The translations under genes were made by a program, and so were the position numbers. A model generated the notes under the pieces. It worked only from the letters and a program-made list of their open reading frames with translations, made no database searches and was not told the origin of the DNA. Of a stretch of DNA of 64,000 nucleotides, positions 39,416 to 47,931 are shown piece by piece (position 1 is the first letter of the stretch; each line of letters begins with the position of its first letter). Source of the stretch: Candidatus Stahliibacteriota bacterium (GTDB taxonomy: Bacteria; Hydrothermota; Tepidihabitantia; SM23-42); the NCBI GenBank assembly GCA_030609135.1, contig JAUWCU010000003.1:55-64054 (forward strand), read 5' to 3'.

Positions 39416-40618
39416 GTGTCTCAGCAACTAAATATCTTGGTCACCGGCGCCGCCGGCTTTATCGGCTGGAAAGTCTGCGAACTCCTCCTCACCAAACCAG
39501 AGCTAATTCCGAGTGACATAATGACCAATGACTCAATGACTGTTTCTGTTATTGGCATCGACAACCTCAACGACTACTACGACATCCGCCTCAAACAATG
39601 GCGTCTTGAGCAATTAAAGAAGTTAAATAGTCATTGCCAGGAACCTTCCTCTTCCGTCATTGCGAGGAATCCCGAGTTTGTCGAGGGAGACGAAGCAATC
39701 TCACCCAATCGATTCATGTTTCACAAACTCGACATCGAAGACTACGCATCTCTTAAGAAATTGTTCCAAAAATACTCTGTTCATTCAAAAAGTACCGCAC
39801 AAAGTGCTCATAACCGCCCCGACACTTTGAATAAAAGTGTGGGGGCCAAAACCGCATCTTTGATGCCAGAACCGCCGTTTACGGCAGTGATCAATCTCGC
39901 TGCTCGTGCTGGTGTTCGCTACAGTTTGGAAAACCCGTTTGTATATTATACGACAAATGTCATCGGTACTTTAAACCTTCTCGAACTGTGTCGTGAATTT
40001 GGTGTGAAAAAATTCATCCTTGCATCTACTTCATCACTATATGCCGGACAGAAAATGCCTTTTAAAGAGGAGTTACCGGTGAATGAACCCATATCGCCTT
40101 ACGCAGCATCAAAAAAGAGTGCTGAAGTTACCTGTTATACATATCACAATTTGTATGATATCGATGTGACGATTTTAAGGTATTTCACTGTGTATGGACC
40201 AGCATCCAGACCTGATATGAGTCCCTTGCGTTTCATATCCTGGGTATATCAGGAAAAACCTGTTATCATATATGGAGATGGTACCCAGTCACGAGATTTT
40301 ACCTATGTCGATGACATCGCCCGCGGCACAATAATGGCATTAAAACCTTTGGGTTTTGATATAATAAACCTTGGCTGTGATCAACCCCATGAATTGCTCG
40401 AATTTCTTCACATGATTGAGGAGAAGCTGGGCAAGAAAGCAAAGATTGTCAATGAACCCATGCATCCTGCAGACATGAAAGCAACCTGGGCAGATATCAC
40501 TAAAGCTAAGAAAATACTCGGCTGGCAGCCTTCAGTAAGATTGGAACAGGGGCTCGATACTGCGGTTGTTTGGTTCACAAAAAACCGTACCTGGCTTGCT
40601 GATATCAAGCTCTCTTGA
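39416..40618 (+). CDS. NAD-dependent nucleotide-sugar epimerase (UDP-glucuronate 4-epimerase / CapI-like SDR) with two lineage-specific insertions, one derived from a repeat element
   Basis: N-terminal ILVTGAAGFIG and the catalytic YAASK motif. Compared with the CapI-like core there are extra segments SSVIARNPEFVEGDEAIS and VHSKSTAQSAHNRPDTLNKSVGAKTASLMPEPP. The start is uncertain (GTG at 39416, or the TTG three codons downstream). Confidence 0.7.
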   Translation: MSQQLNILVTGAAGFIGWKVCELLLTKPELIPSDIMTNDSMTVSVIGIDNLNDYYDIRLKQWRLEQLKKLNSHCQEPSSSVIARNPEFVEGDEAISPNRFMFHKLDIEDYASLKKLFQKYSVHSKSTAQSAHNRPDTLNKSVGAKTASLMPEPPFTAVINLAARAGVRYSLENPFVYYTTNVIGTLNLLELCREFGVKKFILASTSSLYAGQKMPFKEELPVNEPISPYAASKKSAEVTCYTYHNLYDIDVTILRYFTVYGPASRPDMSPLRFISWVYQEKPVIIYGDGTQSRDFTYVDDIARGTIMALKPLGFDIINLGCDQPHELLEFLHMIEEKLGKKAKIVNEPMHPADMKATWADITKAKKILGWQPSVRLEQGLDTAVVWFTKNRTWLADIKLS

Positions 40619-40645
40619 CTTTTTATTGAATGGAGGTTACTTAAT

Positions 40646-41566
40646 ATGAATCGTAGTGCAGTGTGTACATGCCCTATTTGCAAGGGTAATGACGTGATAT
40701 TGATGGGAAAACCACAGATCTCTCCTCAAGGTGTCGATATAATAAACAAAGAATATCAGGTCGTAAAGTGTAAAACATGTAACTTCTATTATGTTTATCC
40801 GCAGATTTCACTTAGTGCTGAAGTCTGGGAGAAACTTTATGCGGTTGAGTATTTTAGTAATAAGACATCATGGTGGATAAGAAAAAGAGATAAGGACTTA
40901 AAACAGCGTTTTGACTGGCTTCAAAAATATTGCAGGCATAATATACAAAATTTCCTTGATGTTGGTTGTGGCGAGGGATATACACTCTTAGAAGCTCTTA
41001 AAAGAGGCTGGAAAACATACGGTATTGATATCTCGGATAATAGAGTAGCCGAAGCAAATAATGAACATGTCATCTTTCACAAAAGTGATATATCCCAGAC
41101 TAACTTCCCAACAGACTTCTTCGATTGTATATATATGGATTCAGTGCTGGAACATCTAACAGATCCCTGCCGCCATCTACTTGAAATTAAACGAATACTC
41201 CGTAAAGGAGGAGTTTTGTATATTGGAGTACCGAATGAAGATTGTTTGTTCAACGAGGTCAAAAGGCTTCTCTTCATATTGATGGGTAAGCATAATTTCT
41301 CCGCTTACCTATATCCTTTCAAACGTCCGTACCATATTATTGGATTTACAAAAGACTCCCTACTTAAAATTTTACAAAAAAGTGGTTTTGACATTTTACG
41401 ATTTAGAAATTTTTCCGGTGAATATGAATACAGGAAATTCAAATTTTTTACTAAGCCGTTTTTGGTTAATTTTTTCCTGTTGCCTGTGCACTTAGTTGCC
41501 ATACCACTCAAAAAGAGGATATATCTGGATACAATAGTGACTAAGAGTCATTCATCACGGCAGTAG
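40646..41566 (+). CDS. class I SAM-dependent methyltransferase with an N-terminal zinc-ribbon
   Basis: CPICKG...CKTCNFYY ribbon, motif I LDVGCGEG and a post-I acidic residue (GIDISD). Confidence 0.7.
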   Translation: MNRSAVCTCPICKGNDVILMGKPQISPQGVDIINKEYQVVKCKTCNFYYVYPQISLSAEVWEKLYAVEYFSNKTSWWIRKRDKDLKQRFDWLQKYCRHNIQNFLDVGCGEGYTLLEALKRGWKTYGIDISDNRVAEANNEHVIFHKSDISQTNFPTDFFDCIYMDSVLEHLTDPCRHLLEIKRILRKGGVLYIGVPNEDCLFNEVKRLLFILMGKHNFSAYLYPFKRPYHIIGFTKDSLLKILQKSGFDILRFRNFSGEYEYRKFKFFTKPFLVNFFLLPVHLVAIPLKKRIYLDTIVTKSHSSRQ

Positions 41567-41678
41567 AATAATTAAGCTTTAAACCAGAATATAGAAAAGG
41601 TCATAAATCTGTATATAATCCTTTATCTAATTTGATTCACTATATAAAGGTCTTCTCCCTGATTCACACAATTCTTTT

Positions 41679-42578
41679 ATGCTGGCAACTAATCTTACCG
41701 TTCATATAGATTCTTCCTACATCCCTTGGCGAGTTCAAGCTGGAGAAGAACCACAGTATTTGTGGCGCTGGGCAATGGCATACGGTGAGTCATACTGGCG
41801 GAATTTTTATGCCTGCACCACCAAGGTGCAATGCCTGCGGAATTATGCAGACACAACTTATGACGACACCTATTTTGATGGTGTCTTTGTTGACAATTTG
41901 CTCCACTTCGTTGATGGTTTGAGTTATGGTTACAACATTTATCCTGCACAATATCGTCCTTATCCGGATACCAATAACTTTGCACAATGGGATGCAAACT
42001 TACGTGCGGCAGTAGATACTTTTGTGCAAACAGTAAGCGCTGAATACCATAACCCTAACACACCTTCTGGTCATCCTTGCGAGGTTTTAGCAATAGGCAA
42101 TACAAACCGGGCACATTTGGTGGATGAATATGCTACTTTATGGAAAAATTTTCTGCAATATCTGGATGGCGCAGTGGAAGAATCTGATTTTGCGCGTGCT
42201 GATATAGAATTTGGTCGCTGGCAGAGAATGATTCATGAAATGGCGATTGCCGAATCATTGGGCAAGATATGCCTCATTCATGTGCCCTGTTCCACAGAAT
42301 TTTATAGTCCTAATGACCCTTTGAGTGTCTACTATTATGACTCAACTCAGATGATTTATGGTTTTGCAAGTTACTTGATGGCTTACGATTCTGTGAGTCA
42401 TTTCGCTTTAAATAAGAATCTTTCTCCCAATTATGCCCATATCTACTGGGCACCGATTTTTTCAATTTGTTCAATTTCTGAATTGGTGAATAGGCGGTTT
42501 CGGAATAGATATTTCGGCTTAAATGTTTCTGGAGATTTTCCCATAAAACAATTATACATATTTTTTGCGAGAACTTAA
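41679..42578 (+). pseudogene. N-terminally truncated paralog of the secreted GH114/TM1410-like hydrolase at 45127 (no signal peptide; starts mid-domain)
   Basis: Aligns to residues about 155-450 of the 45127 protein. It contains a 112-bp tract (41763-41874) that is 100% identical to 45647-45758 while the flanks are diverged. It ends at a TAA that is followed immediately by G9. Confidence 0.45.
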
Positions 42579-42587
42579 GGGGGGGGG
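42579..42587. repeat. poly-G homopolymer (G9)
   Basis: Nine consecutive G in a roughly 35%-GC region, directly after the stop codon of the truncated paralog and 72 bp upstream of the -35 of the SBBP gene promoter. Confidence 0.8.
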
Positions 42588-42658
42588 TAATATGAGGACC
42601 TTTTTATCGAAACAATTATCGGTAAAAATTTTAAGACCCCAAAAAGTGCATTCGCGTG

Positions 42659-42687
42659 TTGACAAAGACAAAACCAATGATTATAAT
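42659..42687 (+). promoter_or_regulatory. sigma70-type promoter TTGACA-17-TATAAT with a 70-nt leader and a GGAGG SD
   Basis: TTGACA at 42659-42664, TATAAT at 42682-42687, start ATG at 42759. Confidence 0.5.
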
Positions 42688-42758
42688 TATAATATGAATT
42701 TTGATACCACGAAGTTTTGGGGAAAATTAAATTATTACTAAAAAGACAAGGAGGAAAT

Positions 42759-43733
42759 ATGAAAAGAGTGGTCATTGGGATATGTGCAATAGTGATAGGG
42801 TTTATGCCCTTGTCCATCTATGGTTCTGAAATTGCAACTGTAACTTTGGAAACCTGGATGAATGCTTCCCAGGGTTTTGAACCAAACCTTGGTCAGATTG
42901 GCGATTTTGAAGGGAATGTGGTTAATAATATCTTGTGCGCTTTCAAGGGTAATGGACTTGGTATATTCATTAATGAAAAAGGGGTAAGTTATGTTATTTA
43001 TCAAGCGGAAAAAATCTTAAGAGATGAGTCCCAGAGAATTGATTTAAGAGAACCTGAAAAAAATCTTATCCACTATGCAAGGATTGATGTGGAGCTTGTG
43101 AATTCCAATTTTGAAAAGTCAAAAATCGTTTATGAAGATGAGCTACCCGGATATGCGCATTATTATTTGCCACAATGTCCTGATGGTATTCTTTATGTGA
43201 AAAGTTTCAGAAAGGTGCGGATTAAAGAGATATATCCGGGCGTTGACTGGATATGGAAATATGAAGATGGACGGTTGCATCATGAATTTGAGGTCAAACC
43301 TGCGTCTGATGTTTCAAAGATAAAGATGAAGGTTAAATGGGCTGATGTTGAGATAAGCGAAAATGGTAGAAAACTTATATATTCTACGCCACTTGGTAAG
43401 ATAAAAGATGGAAATATACTTGGTTATGAAAATCCGAAATCCAAAATCCGAAATCCGAGACCGATTGATATTTCTTATATAAAAAATGAAGATGGGATAA
43501 TTTCCTTTGAAATAAAGAATTATTCCGGTAAAAATCCTCTAATTATTGACCCACCCCTTGCACTATTATGGGGGACATATTACGGAGGCAATGATCCTGA
43601 TCGTGGCTATTCAATTACAACCGATAATTCAGGTAATATTTTTGTAACTGGGACCACTTATTCAACAGAATTTTCCCACACAAGACCCCGGTGGTGGTGC
43701 TTATTATCAAGGTACAAAAGCAGGATATTTTGA
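42759..43733 (+). CDS. SBBP-repeat beta-propeller surface protein, N-terminal part (signal peptide, unique 270-aa domain and the first repeat); reading frame breaks at the T4 run at 43677-43680
   Basis: Start at the internal Met [22 protein letters not shown], preceded by GGAGG. After TTYSTEF the frame yields SHTRPRWWC..., whereas the +1 frame continues the repeat consensus [14 protein letters not shown]. Deleting one T restores a single 770-aa ORF. Confidence 0.6.
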
Positions 43734-44800
43734 TGTATTTGTTTTAAAGTTTACAAATACAGGGGTTCGGCTTTGGGCGACATATTACGGAGGAAATGAC
43801 AGAGATGGGGGCGCTTCAATTATAACTGACAATTCAGGTAATGTTTTTGTAGGTGGAACCACCTATTCAACAGATTTTGCCACACAGGACCCTGGCGGTG
43901 GTGCTTATTATCAAGGAACATTTGCAGGTGTTGGTGATGCATTTATTTTGAAGTTTACAAATGTTGGTATTCGCCTCTGGGCAACATATTACGGCGGAAA
44001 TGATAGTGATATGGTGTGTTCGATTACCACTGATAATTCAGGTAATGTTTTTATAACTGGGTGGACTCTTTCAACAGATTTTCCCATACAGGACCCTGGC
44101 GGTGGTGCCTATTATCAGGGAGCAAATGCAGGTTATAGAGATGCATTTATTTTGAAGTTTACAAATACGGGTGTTCGTCAATGGGCAACGTATTACGGAG
44201 GAAATGCTGGTGATTGGTGCAATTCAATTACAGCGGATAGTTCAGGTAATGTTTTTATAGCCGGATACACCTATTCAACAAATTTCCCCACATATGACCC
44301 CGGGGGAGGTGCTTATTATCAGGAAACACTTGGAGGTGTTCATGATGCATTTATTTTGAAGTTTACAAATACCGGTGTTCGGCAAAGGGCGACATATTAC
44401 GGCGGAAATAATGAGGATATGTGTAATTCAGTTACAACTGATGCTTCAGGTAATATTTTTGTGACTGGATACACTTTTTCACCAGATTTTCCCACATATG
44501 ACCCCGGGGGAGGTGCTTATTATCAGGGAGCACTTGCAGGCGGATATGATGCATTTGTCTTGAAGTTTACAAATAGCGGTATTCGCCAATGGGCAACGTA
44601 TTACGGAGGAAATGATGTGGATTGTGGCTTTTCAATTAAAACCGATAATTCAGGTAATGTTTTTGTAACTGGACTAACTGTTTCAACAAATTTCCCAACA
44701 CAGGACCCTGGCGGTGGTGCTTATTATCAGGGGACACATGCAGGTGTTGGTGATGTATTTCTTTTGAAGTTTGAAACTTCACTGGGAATTGTAGAGGAAA
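43560..44800 (+). repeat. intragenic tandem DNA repeats (144-bp period, about 8 copies, high nucleotide identity) encoding the SBBP blades
   Basis: Recurrent strings include gcaacatattacggcggaaatga, ggtgcttattatcagg and gcatttattttgaagtttacaaata. Confidence 0.7.
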
Positions 44801-45069
44801 ATACTAAAAAGAATGAGCCTTCGGTTCTAATTATTTCTTCTATCTTTATCAACAGAATACGAATAGACCTTTCATTATCTTCTAAAAAACCCATGGCTCT
44901 TATCCTTTATAATTTATTGGGGCAGAAAATCTTTTCAAGGTCTTATCCTGAAACTAAGTCTCTTATTATAAGAGGCAGAGAGATTGAAGAATTGAGTAAA
45001 GGAATATATTTCTTATCTGTCTATTCAGGAAAAAAAGAGATTGGCAGGGTTAAGCTGATAAAGAGATAA
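43948..45069 (+). CDS. SBBP-repeat beta-propeller protein, C-terminal part (about 7 x 48-aa repeats plus a T9SS C-terminal sorting domain); the frame is open upstream to about 43680
   Basis: Repeats follow [68 protein letters not shown]. The C-terminus ...[23 protein letters not shown] is a typical T9SS CTD. Confidence 0.65.
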
Positions 45070-45126
45070 AGGCTCCATGTTTGCGCGTTGGTTTAATAAT
45101 AACTTTGTAATAATTGGAGGTGTGCG

Positions 45127-47931
45127 ATGGGGCGATTTAAGGTAATTCTTATCGTGATTGTAATCTATTTAATGGCTCAGATTGTTTTTGCTGAGCCCAC
45201 CGCAAAGACTTATATCTTTGCCGCATCCCAATATATGTTTTACCATCCCTGGTATGGTGGAAACCCTCTGGATTCGCTTTGCAAACACTTTGATGTGATT
45301 ATCTTTCATGACTGGAATAGGGATACAATCCCTACGATTCGGGATAGCACAAAAGTAGAATGGCGTAGAAATAATGCGCCAATACTTTTATTGTATAAAG
45401 ATGCAATGACTATATGTGGTCCAGGTCGTCCCTGGCATCCTGAACCAGACCCGACAATTGGTGGTCGTGAAACTGTTGGTGGGTATAATCATTTTGATTC
45501 GTTATTAAAGCAAAATTACCCGTCAGATACTTTCTTTATGTTAGCGACGACCGTAGGTTCTCAGCAAACTTCCCATTATGATACCATCGTTATCGGTAAT
45601 GATACTCTGCATCGTGTCAAGGCTGGTAGTGATCCCTCCTGGCAGTGGCGCTGGGCAATGGCATACGGTGAGTCATACTGGCGGAATTTTTATGCCTGCA
45701 CCACCAAGGTGCAATGCCTGCGGAATTATGCAGACACAACTTATGATGATACCTATTTTGACGGTGTACTCATTGATAATTTGTTACCCTTAAGAAGTCT
45801 GCATGGCTTATATCCACAACAATATCCCGACAATAACAGTTTTAGAGAGGCGGTTTATTCTTTCACCCAGACCGCCTGCTCTGAATATCATAATCTTACA
45901 TCACCTCCGGGTAATCCCCGTTCAATTCTTGGTACTGGCAATTTGAACTATATTTACTTAACACCTCTAAGTGATACAGTATGGAAAAAGCTTCTCCATA
46001 TTTTAGATGGCGGTATGGAGGAAGGCTCAGATGGCTTACACAGATTGTCTTTTAATGACTGGCATAGAATTATGCAGGAAATTGCAATGGCTGAATCTTT
46101 AGGTAAGATATCTTTTATACGTGAGGCAGTTGACTCATGCGAATACGATACAATTATCAATCCCTTTGGATTACTTTCGTTTAGTTCTACAAATCTGATG
46201 TTTGGTTTTACAAGTTATCTTATGGTCTTTGATTCTATGGCGCACTTCTATTTTTGTCCACGGGAAGGTCCGCATTACGCGTTTATCTGCTGGGCGCCAG
46301 TCTTAGATATTGATATTGGTAAGCCAATGGGGCGGTACATCCTGACCGCAGACACCCTCGCATATCGTTATTATGAAGGTGCAGCAGTATTTGCCAATCC
46401 GTGCAGTCTTTCATCAGTAACTGCAGGTTTCCCCGGTGATACTTTGTTGTTCATAAAGACAGCATCCTGCACAGTGGATGTTACAATTGACCAGTTAATA
46501 CTTCCTTCTCATACAGGGGTAATTGGACTTTATCCATTAAACTATTTCCAGGCAAGCGGTTTTGAGCCTGATGACCGTTTGTGCTGGGAGAACTACTGTC
46601 TTGAGGTTGAGGGGGTTACAAATTGCTATGCAAAAAGAGTGCAGGGTATTCCGCCAAACGGTGTGACACCACATTCCGGTCAATGGATGTATAAGGTTTA
46701 TGGTCAGGATGAGAGCACTGATACAAGTTTTGTCAGCTTCAAGGTCTTTCCGTACGATGTGCTGATTGAAGATCCCACTTATCTGTCTTTCTGGATATAT
46801 GTTGAAGATGCACCCGGCGATTCAGCACCGATTGGTATAGACTGTCTACTAAAGAGCGGCAAGCGGTTGAGTGAGTGGACAAAATTTGGCACGATTTTAG
46901 ACCAGTATGGTAAAGAAATAAATCCCGCTGACCGCCGTGTGCCCGAAGGTGCGTGGTATCAATATGTGTTTACATTTAACCCGGCAGTCAACGAAACGAT
47001 TGACCACATTGAGTTGGTTTATGATGGCTCGCAGATTTCAGAGACCGGCGATTTTTGTGCGTATATTGATGATATAGAGATACTAACTCAATTCCCGATA
47101 CTCGATACCTGGTATGCGGAGAAGTTTCCGGTTGGCAGTCCCATCAATAATCCTAACAATTATGACCCGAACTTCTATATGAACTTCATTGCTCAAGGCG
47201 ATTCTGTTAGATTGATTATCAATCCACAGGGTGATGGTGGTGAGGGTGCGCACTGGGTTAACCCGGCGCCAGGGATTAGAAACAACATTACTGATATTTC
47301 TGTTGATTCATTCACAACAGTCATCTGGAGTCAGTATGATAAGGCACACAGTCTGATTCTTTCGCTATTTGTCCATGATAACCAGGAGAATAACCGATGG
47401 CTTATGTATGCAAAGAATGCGAGCAATTGGTGGCCACAAACCGGCTGGGTTGATATGGGAGATACGGCGAGGCATTATAATATGTGGGAAGGGTTTTTTA
47501 GGAACATTAGAGATGATTATACTGCGGAATACGGCGGTGAAGTTGAACCCGAATCTATCATAGAGTTGAGACTGGAGCACTTTGCCCGGTCAGAATGGGT
47601 TGGTGATTCCGGTGGGACAATCAGGAATCTTTTCATCGTGCCCTTCACCCAGGAATTTACCATAAATCAAAATCAGACCTATACCAATATGCCATATGTA
47701 GCACTGAGGACCAAAGTGACTTCTGAGATTGTGGACTCAATGAATATCCATCAGGATTATAGCGATTCGCTTACGGATTCTACTGGCTGGATTGCCTATG
47801 ATACTTCCTATTGCTGGTATCTGCGAGAGGGAGAAGGAAACAACACAGTTTATATTCAATACAAGGTTGGTGGTTTCAGCGAGAGTCCGGTCTATTGCGA
47901 TACCATCATCTTTGATAAAACTTTGACTTGA
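45127..47931 (+). CDS. secreted 934-aa protein; N-terminal half is a putative glycoside-hydrolase-like TIM-barrel (GH114/TM1410-like, DGVxxDN motif), C-terminal half unknown
   Basis: Signal peptide MGRFKVILIVIVIYLMAQIVFA. YFDGVLIDNLL resembles the GFDGVFLD motif of GH114/GHL families. The assignment is tentative and made without a search. Confidence 0.4.
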   Translation: MGRFKVILIVIVIYLMAQIVFAEPTAKTYIFAASQYMFYHPWYGGNPLDSLCKHFDVIIFHDWNRDTIPTIRDSTKVEWRRNNAPILLLYKDAMTICGPGRPWHPEPDPTIGGRETVGGYNHFDSLLKQNYPSDTFFMLATTVGSQQTSHYDTIVIGNDTLHRVKAGSDPSWQWRWAMAYGESYWRNFYACTTKVQCLRNYADTTYDDTYFDGVLIDNLLPLRSLHGLYPQQYPDNNSFREAVYSFTQTACSEYHNLTSPPGNPRSILGTGNLNYIYLTPLSDTVWKKLLHILDGGMEEGSDGLHRLSFNDWHRIMQEIAMAESLGKISFIREAVDSCEYDTIINPFGLLSFSSTNLMFGFTSYLMVFDSMAHFYFCPREGPHYAFICWAPVLDIDIGKPMGRYILTADTLAYRYYEGAAVFANPCSLSSVTAGFPGDTLLFIKTASCTVDVTIDQLILPSHTGVIGLYPLNYFQASGFEPDDRLCWENYCLEVEGVTNCYAKRVQGIPPNGVTPHSGQWMYKVYGQDESTDTSFVSFKVFPYDVLIEDPTYLSFWIYVEDAPGDSAPIGIDCLLKSGKRLSEWTKFGTILDQYGKEINPADRRVPEGAWYQYVFTFNPAVNETIDHIELVYDGSQISETGDFCAYIDDIEILTQFPILDTWYAEKFPVGSPINNPNNYDPNFYMNFIAQGDSVRLIINPQGDGGEGAHWVNPAPGIRNNITDISVDSFTTVIWSQYDKAHSLILSLFVHDNQENNRWLMYAKNASNWWPQTGWVDMGDTARHYNMWEGFFRNIRDDYTAEYGGEVEPESIIELRLEHFARSEWVGDSGGTIRNLFIVPFTQEFTINQNQTYTNMPYVALRTKVTSEIVDSMNIHQDYSDSLTDSTGWIAYDTSYCWYLREGEGNNTVYIQYKVGGFSESPVYCDTIIFDKTLT

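Follow-up and report, generated by a model that had tools for sequence, protein, structure and literature searches.

Type IX secretion system (T9SS) cargo requires both Sec export and a C-terminal domain. One family of predicted cargo combines the domain DUF7948, a beta-propeller of SBBP repeats and a T9SS sorting domain; we retrieved more than 6,500 homologous proteins, the best matches of which show this architecture, with a typical length of 800-840 aa read in a single frame, and the named homologues come mostly from metagenome-assembled genomes (MAGs) of candidate division WOR-3 and Hydrothermia. Genes for surface proteins are often phase-variable, and known contingency tracts are usually homopolymers of at least 7-8 nt, or else a short unit present in many copies. 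Here we analyse a member of this family that is split into two open reading frames (ORFs), located at positions 42759-45069 of a 64,000-nt stretch (hereafter, the window) of contig JAUWCU010000003.1, from the assembly GCA_030609135.1 of a Candidatus Stahliibacteriota bacterium; the gene and its sequence features lie on the forward strand. Our results indicate that an accessory T9SS cargo gene of an uncultured Candidatus Stahlbacteria (WOR-3 lineage) has here probably become a pseudogene, recently and with fixation of the lesion, through a real insertion of one base.

Reading frames, repeat array and encoded protein

The 5' reading frame of the split gene (42759-43733; 324 aa plus stop) starts with the ATG at 42759 and comprises a signal peptide, DUF7948, strands 1-3 of the first propeller blade and a tail of 19 out-of-frame codons. 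As read directly from the DNA, frame 0 continues beyond ...TGTTYSTEF for these 19 residues and is terminated by the stop codon at 43731-43733. By contrast with this early stop, 473 codons can be read without interruption in the +1 frame (43648-45069), which encodes the end of the first blade, the five blades that follow (2-6), a linker and the C-terminal domain, up to a TAA at 45067-45069. This part has neither a signal peptide of its own nor a start at its beginning: the earliest possible starts, a TTG at 43948 and an ATG at approximately 44011, both fall within blade 3, and the second ORF, as called among NCBI-derived proteins, has 352 aa (P0139). Upstream of the gene, a Shine-Dalgarno-like AGGAGG (42749-42754) can be read 4 nt 5' of the ATG, and a consensus scan identified a promoter-like TTGACA-17-TATAAT with 12/12 matches (42659-42687), 72 nt 5' of the ATG. 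This match is suggestive of a promoter for the split gene, although it is not proof of function, and the total of promoter-like sites found in the region by the scan was no higher than in shuffled sequence.

The frame is broken at GAATTTTCCC (43668-43677), which includes a run of four T (T4) at 43671-43674 and has one base more than the equivalent sites in the other units of the repeat array (GATTTTCCC or AATTTCCC). Using the motif TAYTACGG as an anchor, the spacing between consecutive unit starts is 205, 204, 204, 204 and 204 nt, so there is exactly one extra base and it is located in unit 1. Units 2, 3 and 5 read GATTTTCC/GATTTTGC, that is, GATTTT(C/G)CC, with the T4 present and in frame, the equivalent site of units 4 and 6 is AATTTCCC, and the closest homologues have GTTTTTCCC in frame at this position. 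Because of the in-frame T4 in units 2, 3 and 5, the extra base is not assignable to the T run, and an extra A (GAT to GAAT) fits equally well. An earlier note on this sequence had described a single gene split by a one-base insertion, with frame 0 stopping after TTYSTEF and the +1 frame reading like the other repeats; unit spacing, frame behaviour and translation bear out both claims. It had also attributed the break to an extra T in a TTTT run at 43677-43680, of which the extra base stands but not its assignment to a T, and the run had been misplaced, since these positions read CACA. In an AlphaFold2 model of the protein, the break maps near residue 305, to the long loop that joins strand 3 of blade 1 to strand 4.

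The repeat array (43566-44790) contains six tandem units of 205 nt (unit 1) or 204 nt (the others), with each 68-aa unit equivalent to one four-stranded SBBP blade. Tandem Repeats Finder (TRF) reported a period of 204 bp with 5.9 copies and 78% matches, and a hidden Markov model (HMM) of the unit found six matches in the array. Ungapped comparison of the six units in pairs gave identities of 71-81% at the DNA level and 62-77% at the protein level, and the longest exact stretch common to any two of them is 37 nt. The array thus differs from its previous description as about eight blades encoded by nearly identical repeats of 144 bp, as regards number, similarity and period. With units of 204 bp and such levels of identity, frequent slipped-strand changes in copy number are much less likely than had been assumed; the variation in unit number that had been predicted does exist, but across the family and over evolutionary time.

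Removal of one T from the run gives a repaired protein of 769 aa. Its first 23 residues (42759-42827) are a probable Sec signal peptide, judged by inspection from the basic n-region and the hydrophobic stretch after it, and they are modelled as a helix (residues 2-14) leading into a low-confidence linker. DUF7948 (PF25778) occupies residues 40-265 (42876-43553), with a match to nearly the full profile (E 4.3e-37; 128.7 bits vs a cut-off of 27), and SBBP (PF06739) was matched in six stretches (146.6 bits vs a gathering threshold of 20.5). A probable T9SS type A C-terminal sorting domain spans repaired residues ca. 700-769 (44857-45066); it passes TIGR04183 (Por_Secre_tail) marginally, with 24.5 bits for a cut-off of 23, and stays under the cut-off of PF18962 (20 vs 27 bits), a profile that many homologues do carry. 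From 58 sequences, AlphaFold2 produced a model with a mean predicted local distance difference test score (pLDDT) of 82.8, rising to around 90 over the repeat array. In this model, residues 269-671 form six groups of four strands (24 in total), so that every 68-aa unit makes up one blade, and residues 689-768 form a seven-strand beta-sandwich. The order of signal peptide, domain of about 270 aa, SBBP repeats and T9SS C-terminal domain proposed in the earlier note is therefore retained, with six blades instead of eight.

The intact gene would have encoded an accessory T9SS cargo protein, composed of a Sec signal peptide, DUF7948, an SBBP beta-propeller of six blades and a predicted type A sorting domain, which the single-base insertion in blade 1 would inactivate. 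Translation from the promoter-like site and ribosome-binding site would yield the 324-aa product, having the signal peptide and neither propeller nor sorting domain, whereas the 3' 1.4 kb, open in the +1 frame, would retain the C-terminal domain with no signal peptide or initial start codon to go with it. The frameshift puts the signal peptide and the C-terminal domain on separate polypeptides and, since T9SS cargo needs the two together, neither fragment should be able to reach the cell surface. Compared to intact homologues, the disruption of the frame separates parts that are essential, which is what defines a pseudogene. The lesion is likely recent, because the +1 frame has no second one over its 1.4 kb, the promoter-like site and the ribosome-binding site are undamaged, and all six units can still be recognised. 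There was no T9SS component among the annotated genes of the window, part of which were scanned.

Other records of the allele and intact homologues

The exact 324-aa product, with the out-of-frame tail included, occurs in the Logan assemblies SRR14876856 and SRR14923480, and also in NCBI assemblies. The DNA of the two Logan contigs is 100% identical to the window over 41762-43911 and 41834-43911 (ca. 2.1 kb); they were seen in four run entries, the second contig in three samples. Likewise, a contig from JGI metagenome 3300040951 (Ga0451374_47983, locus L004), which spans positions 41148-44017 of the window, also encodes the truncated product. It differs from the window by one single-nucleotide polymorphism (42070) and by the length of a poly-G tract (G11 vs G9), and therefore represents a genotype slightly distinct from that of the window, with the frameshift shared by both. 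Indeed, the sequence at 43668-43677 is identical in all the assemblies of the strain, with no length polymorphism. The allele is the consensus in every assembly compared, and is probably fixed, not switching, in the sampled population.

No intact allele with at least 90% identity across the junction was found in a collection of 5.8 billion proteins, where only the truncated product (P0121) matched at high identity, and an exact pattern tolerating either three or four T (CTTATTCAACAGAN{4,5}CCCACACAAGACCCCGGTGG) had no match in genome-contig or metagenome-contig collections. A protein-based scan of metagenome contigs retrieved no relative closer than 75% and no further alleles of the strain, and exact look-ups of the neighbouring 934-aa protein and of the 352-aa P0139 returned no match. 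Literature searches on the run and sample accessions found nothing, and those on SBBP with T9SS only general T9SS papers. Within the window, RecA, AlaRS, QueC and other genes have their full length, as would not be expected of an assembly with many indels; additionally, the agreement between separately made assemblies makes a one-off sequencing or assembly error unlikely.

The homologues provide the reference for the intact state. Counting with the unit HMM in the 120 best homologues, we found seven units per protein in 110, six in 7, five in 2 and eight in 1. Intact six-unit proteins thus exist, for instance P0058 (773 aa) and P0076 (772 aa), and having six units is no defect in itself. The closest homologue, P0001 (838 aa; JGI 3300024433), resembles the window protein in domain order and in the 68-aa blade unit, with 77% identity over the MAFFT alignment and 73% by BLASTP. 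In the MAFFT alignment, the unit that is missing with respect to P0001 is located within unit 4/5; half-unit identity matrices against P0001 gave no discrimination between the candidates for the lost ancestral unit, and a YYQE-LGG signature is the sole hint that unit 4 might be a 4/5 chimera.

We also took the best 80 related metagenome loci, of which 71 contain an ORF that ends inside the contig. Most of these complete loci (64 of the 71) run for at least 600 aa in one frame; the other seven are five shorter in-frame ORFs, perhaps products of repeat collapse, and two with an in-frame TAA, and none of the 71 contains a frameshift. Members with two or three units (L019, L039, L056, L059 and L062) could be assembly collapses and were left out as evidence on copy number. 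The two loci with a premature stop, L013 (3001-4692; FWPU01005773.1) and L014 (753-2348; FWWM01025846.1), show the same in-frame TAA at codon 49, in place of the conserved G of GQ(I/V)GDFEG, and represent another disrupted member of the family.

Pseudogene or switch

The earlier note favoured an on/off switch, and gave a sequencing error as the alternative. According to the first, slipped-strand mispairing in the T4 run would switch the gene between an on and an off state, with changes also in the copy number of the repeat array; this agrees with a break at a short homopolymer in a gene for a predicted surface protein, from a family whose members have 5 to 8 units. However, a T4 is far shorter than known contingency tracts and is ubiquitous, with 409 T4 runs and 667 T runs of at least four in the 64-kb window, and the same T4 is found in frame in units 2, 3 and 5. 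The units themselves are only 71-81% identical, with no more than 37 nt of exact identity. Moreover, every assembly of the strain contains one and the same state, including the genotype that differs elsewhere, and no intact allele appeared in the protein collection. We thus consider this switch very unlikely. The opposite possibility, that the true genome is one base shorter and the gene intact, appears highly improbable as well. Single-base indels in homopolymers are a common artefact of some platforms, one of which may have been used for the window; nevertheless, the NCBI contig and the Logan and JGI pipelines, with at least four run entries plus the JGI metagenome, agree on the number of bases, the Logan contigs are 100% identical over ca. 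2.1 kb, and the other genes of the window are intact. Agreement among separately made assemblies from several runs also speaks against this alternative. It is extremely unlikely, in turn, that the full-length protein is produced by a programmed +1 ribosomal frameshift, with tRNA-Phe slipping from UUU to the overlapping UUU (UUU_U CCC). The 0-frame codon in the A site, UCC, is an ordinary one (6.3 per 1000), four in-frame instances of TTT TCC are present in the window in genes of no special kind, and the site has neither a stop codon nor a Shine-Dalgarno-like stimulator; besides, the closest homologues (L003 and L092) and the complete family loci are not frameshifted, so the shift site is not conserved. 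These observations have to be set against a geometry that permits re-pairing on U UUU and a +1 frame that is open and conserved over 473 codons.

A different kind of switch might reside in two other repeats of the locus, with the T-run frameshift being an incidental later lesion. A poly-G tract of nine residues (G9; 42579-42587), whose role is unproven, lies just 3' of the stop codon of an upstream gene remnant (see below) and 72 nt 5' of the -35 box. No other G/C homopolymer in the window is as long, the next having 6 residues, and no other tract at the locus was seen to vary in length: the two Logan contigs agree with the window in having G9, against G11 in the JGI contig, which is otherwise 99.9% identical. 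The tract may be hypermutable, or its variation may be sequencing noise, because length calls of poly-G are error-prone in short-read data. In turn, TRF detected 4.1 copies of the heptanucleotide AAATCCG in the DUF7948 coding region (43430-43458), presently in frame, where the gain or loss of a single copy would change the reading frame. A contingency locus operating through the poly-G (G9/G11), the heptanucleotide or both would account for the difference in tract length between nearly identical assemblies and for its position upstream of a perfect promoter consensus. We consider it unlikely, however, because of the error-prone length calls and because the tract is outside the promoter spacer; also, G/C runs of at least 8 in 540 kb of family loci were limited to scattered cases with no consistent association to promoters. 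As for the heptanucleotide, the two closest homologues contain five identical copies of AAATCGT at the same site (L003, 866-900; L092, codons 223-235 of the P0020 gene), and there is no evident instability, because the repeats are identical in both despite synonymous differences around them. Quite unlikely, too, is that the whole cassette is a contingency locus in which a hypermutable poly-G, perhaps together with the heptanucleotide, tunes the expression of the T9SS propeller, and the T-run frameshift is either a later lesion or a second switch that rarely reverts. We know of no documented case of phase variation in this candidate lineage.

A recent, fixed pseudogene remains the probable explanation, but there are points that weigh against it. 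The comparison was made at the assembly level, and samples may contain a minority subpopulation with three T and an intact gene. A single study or site may be the source of all the public assemblies, and the reads behind the NCBI contig may be the same, so their independence may be one of runs and assemblers and not of populations. A +1 frame open for 1.4 kb with perfectly conserved blade motifs would also be expected of a functional, recoded gene. Finally, the inactivity of the two fragments is a deduction from T9SS biology.

Genomic setting and comparison with known systems

The RecA encoded in the window is 97-98% identical to those of Candidatus Stahlbacteria MAGs, with 98% for contig JBARXC010000163.1 and 97% for JAUVZL010000021.1, and ca. 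80% to those of WOR-3 MAGs. The split gene is in a neighbourhood of glycan biosynthesis genes (epimerases, GT4 glycosyltransferases and a methyltransferase), and is part of a segment of ca. 7.4 kb (40540-47915) with genes for a methyltransferase, a 299-aa remnant, the split SBBP protein and a 934-aa protein. The window aligns collinearly with three ENA contigs from related strains (L007, L008 and L011), at 87-96% nucleotide identity. Collinearity extends to position 40538 in L007 and L011, and L008 ends at around 39510. Contig L011 resumes at 47915 after some 600 bp that contain an RHH antitoxin gene, and L007 has toxin-antitoxin genes at the position of the island; the genes occupying this slot in L007 and L011 are RHH/PIN and NTP_transf_2/HepT. 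Since these two related strains lack the segment, 40540-47915 is a strain-specific island, and constitutes a variable slot inside the glycan-biosynthesis gene cluster.

The 299-aa remnant (41679-42578, on the forward strand) is a truncated paralogue that corresponds to residues 138-395 of the 934-aa protein (45127-47931), with 48% identity in BLASTP comparison (E 2e-75), and there is no coding sequence upstream of it for the missing N-terminus. A patch of 147 nt (41762-41908) is 93% identical to positions 45645-45791, which suggests gene conversion between the remnant and the gene for the 934-aa protein. Short-read contigs end exactly at this patch. The 934-aa protein has no Pfam match at E<=0.001, and its 1,022-aa homologue from L003 shows a weak match to GHL15 (glycoside-hydrolase-like). 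An SBBP gene and a gene of the 934-aa type also occur together in L003, the locus of P0001, and the two appear to travel as a pair. The strain-specific nature of the 7.4-kb segment, together with the adjoining gene remnant, fits the ordinary decay of a dispensable accessory gene.

In all, the two ORFs (324 aa and ca. 352-373 aa) are better annotated as one frameshifted DUF7948-SBBP-T9SS pseudogene than as two hypothetical proteins, and the locus as an accessory cargo gene, probably in decay, on an island that varies between strains and is surrounded by the glycan-biosynthesis genes of this member of Candidatus Stahlbacteria. The family is very common but uncharacterised, and the finding has little significance beyond annotation.

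Among solved structures, the best match to the model of the repaired protein is CylK, a cyanobacterial Friedel-Crafts alkylating enzyme made of an N-terminal domain and a beta-propeller (PDB 7FH7 and 7RON; Foldseek E 1e-23, ca. 21% identity). Foldseek aligned ca. 530 of its 653 residues, a match that reaches past the propeller region, although the TM-score is only 0.37-0.43 and CylK is no T9SS cargo; the likeness, as modelled, is one of fold only and implies no enzymatic function. SBBP propeller repeats are also shared with the Leptospira LipL53-family SBBP lipoprotein (NF047494), but the score of 106.5 bits is far under the cut-off of 400, the window protein has no lipobox and its N-terminal domain differs, so we rejected its membership in that family. 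The contingency genes of Neisseria, Haemophilus and Campylobacter resemble the split gene in that a surface-protein gene is interrupted at a mononucleotide run, whereas the tract in the window has only 4 nt and shows no length polymorphism in any assembly. In genes with a +1 frameshift of the prfB type, the shift site is conserved, the A-site codon is slow or a stop, and there is a stimulator; none of these features is present here. The closest counterparts are the proteins of the WOR-3 and Hydrothermia family, such as P0021, a UniRef 'T9SS type A sorting domain-containing protein' from candidate division WOR-3, with which the window protein has its architecture in common; it differs from them in that the window copy is frameshifted and contains six units, against seven in 110 of 120 homologues.

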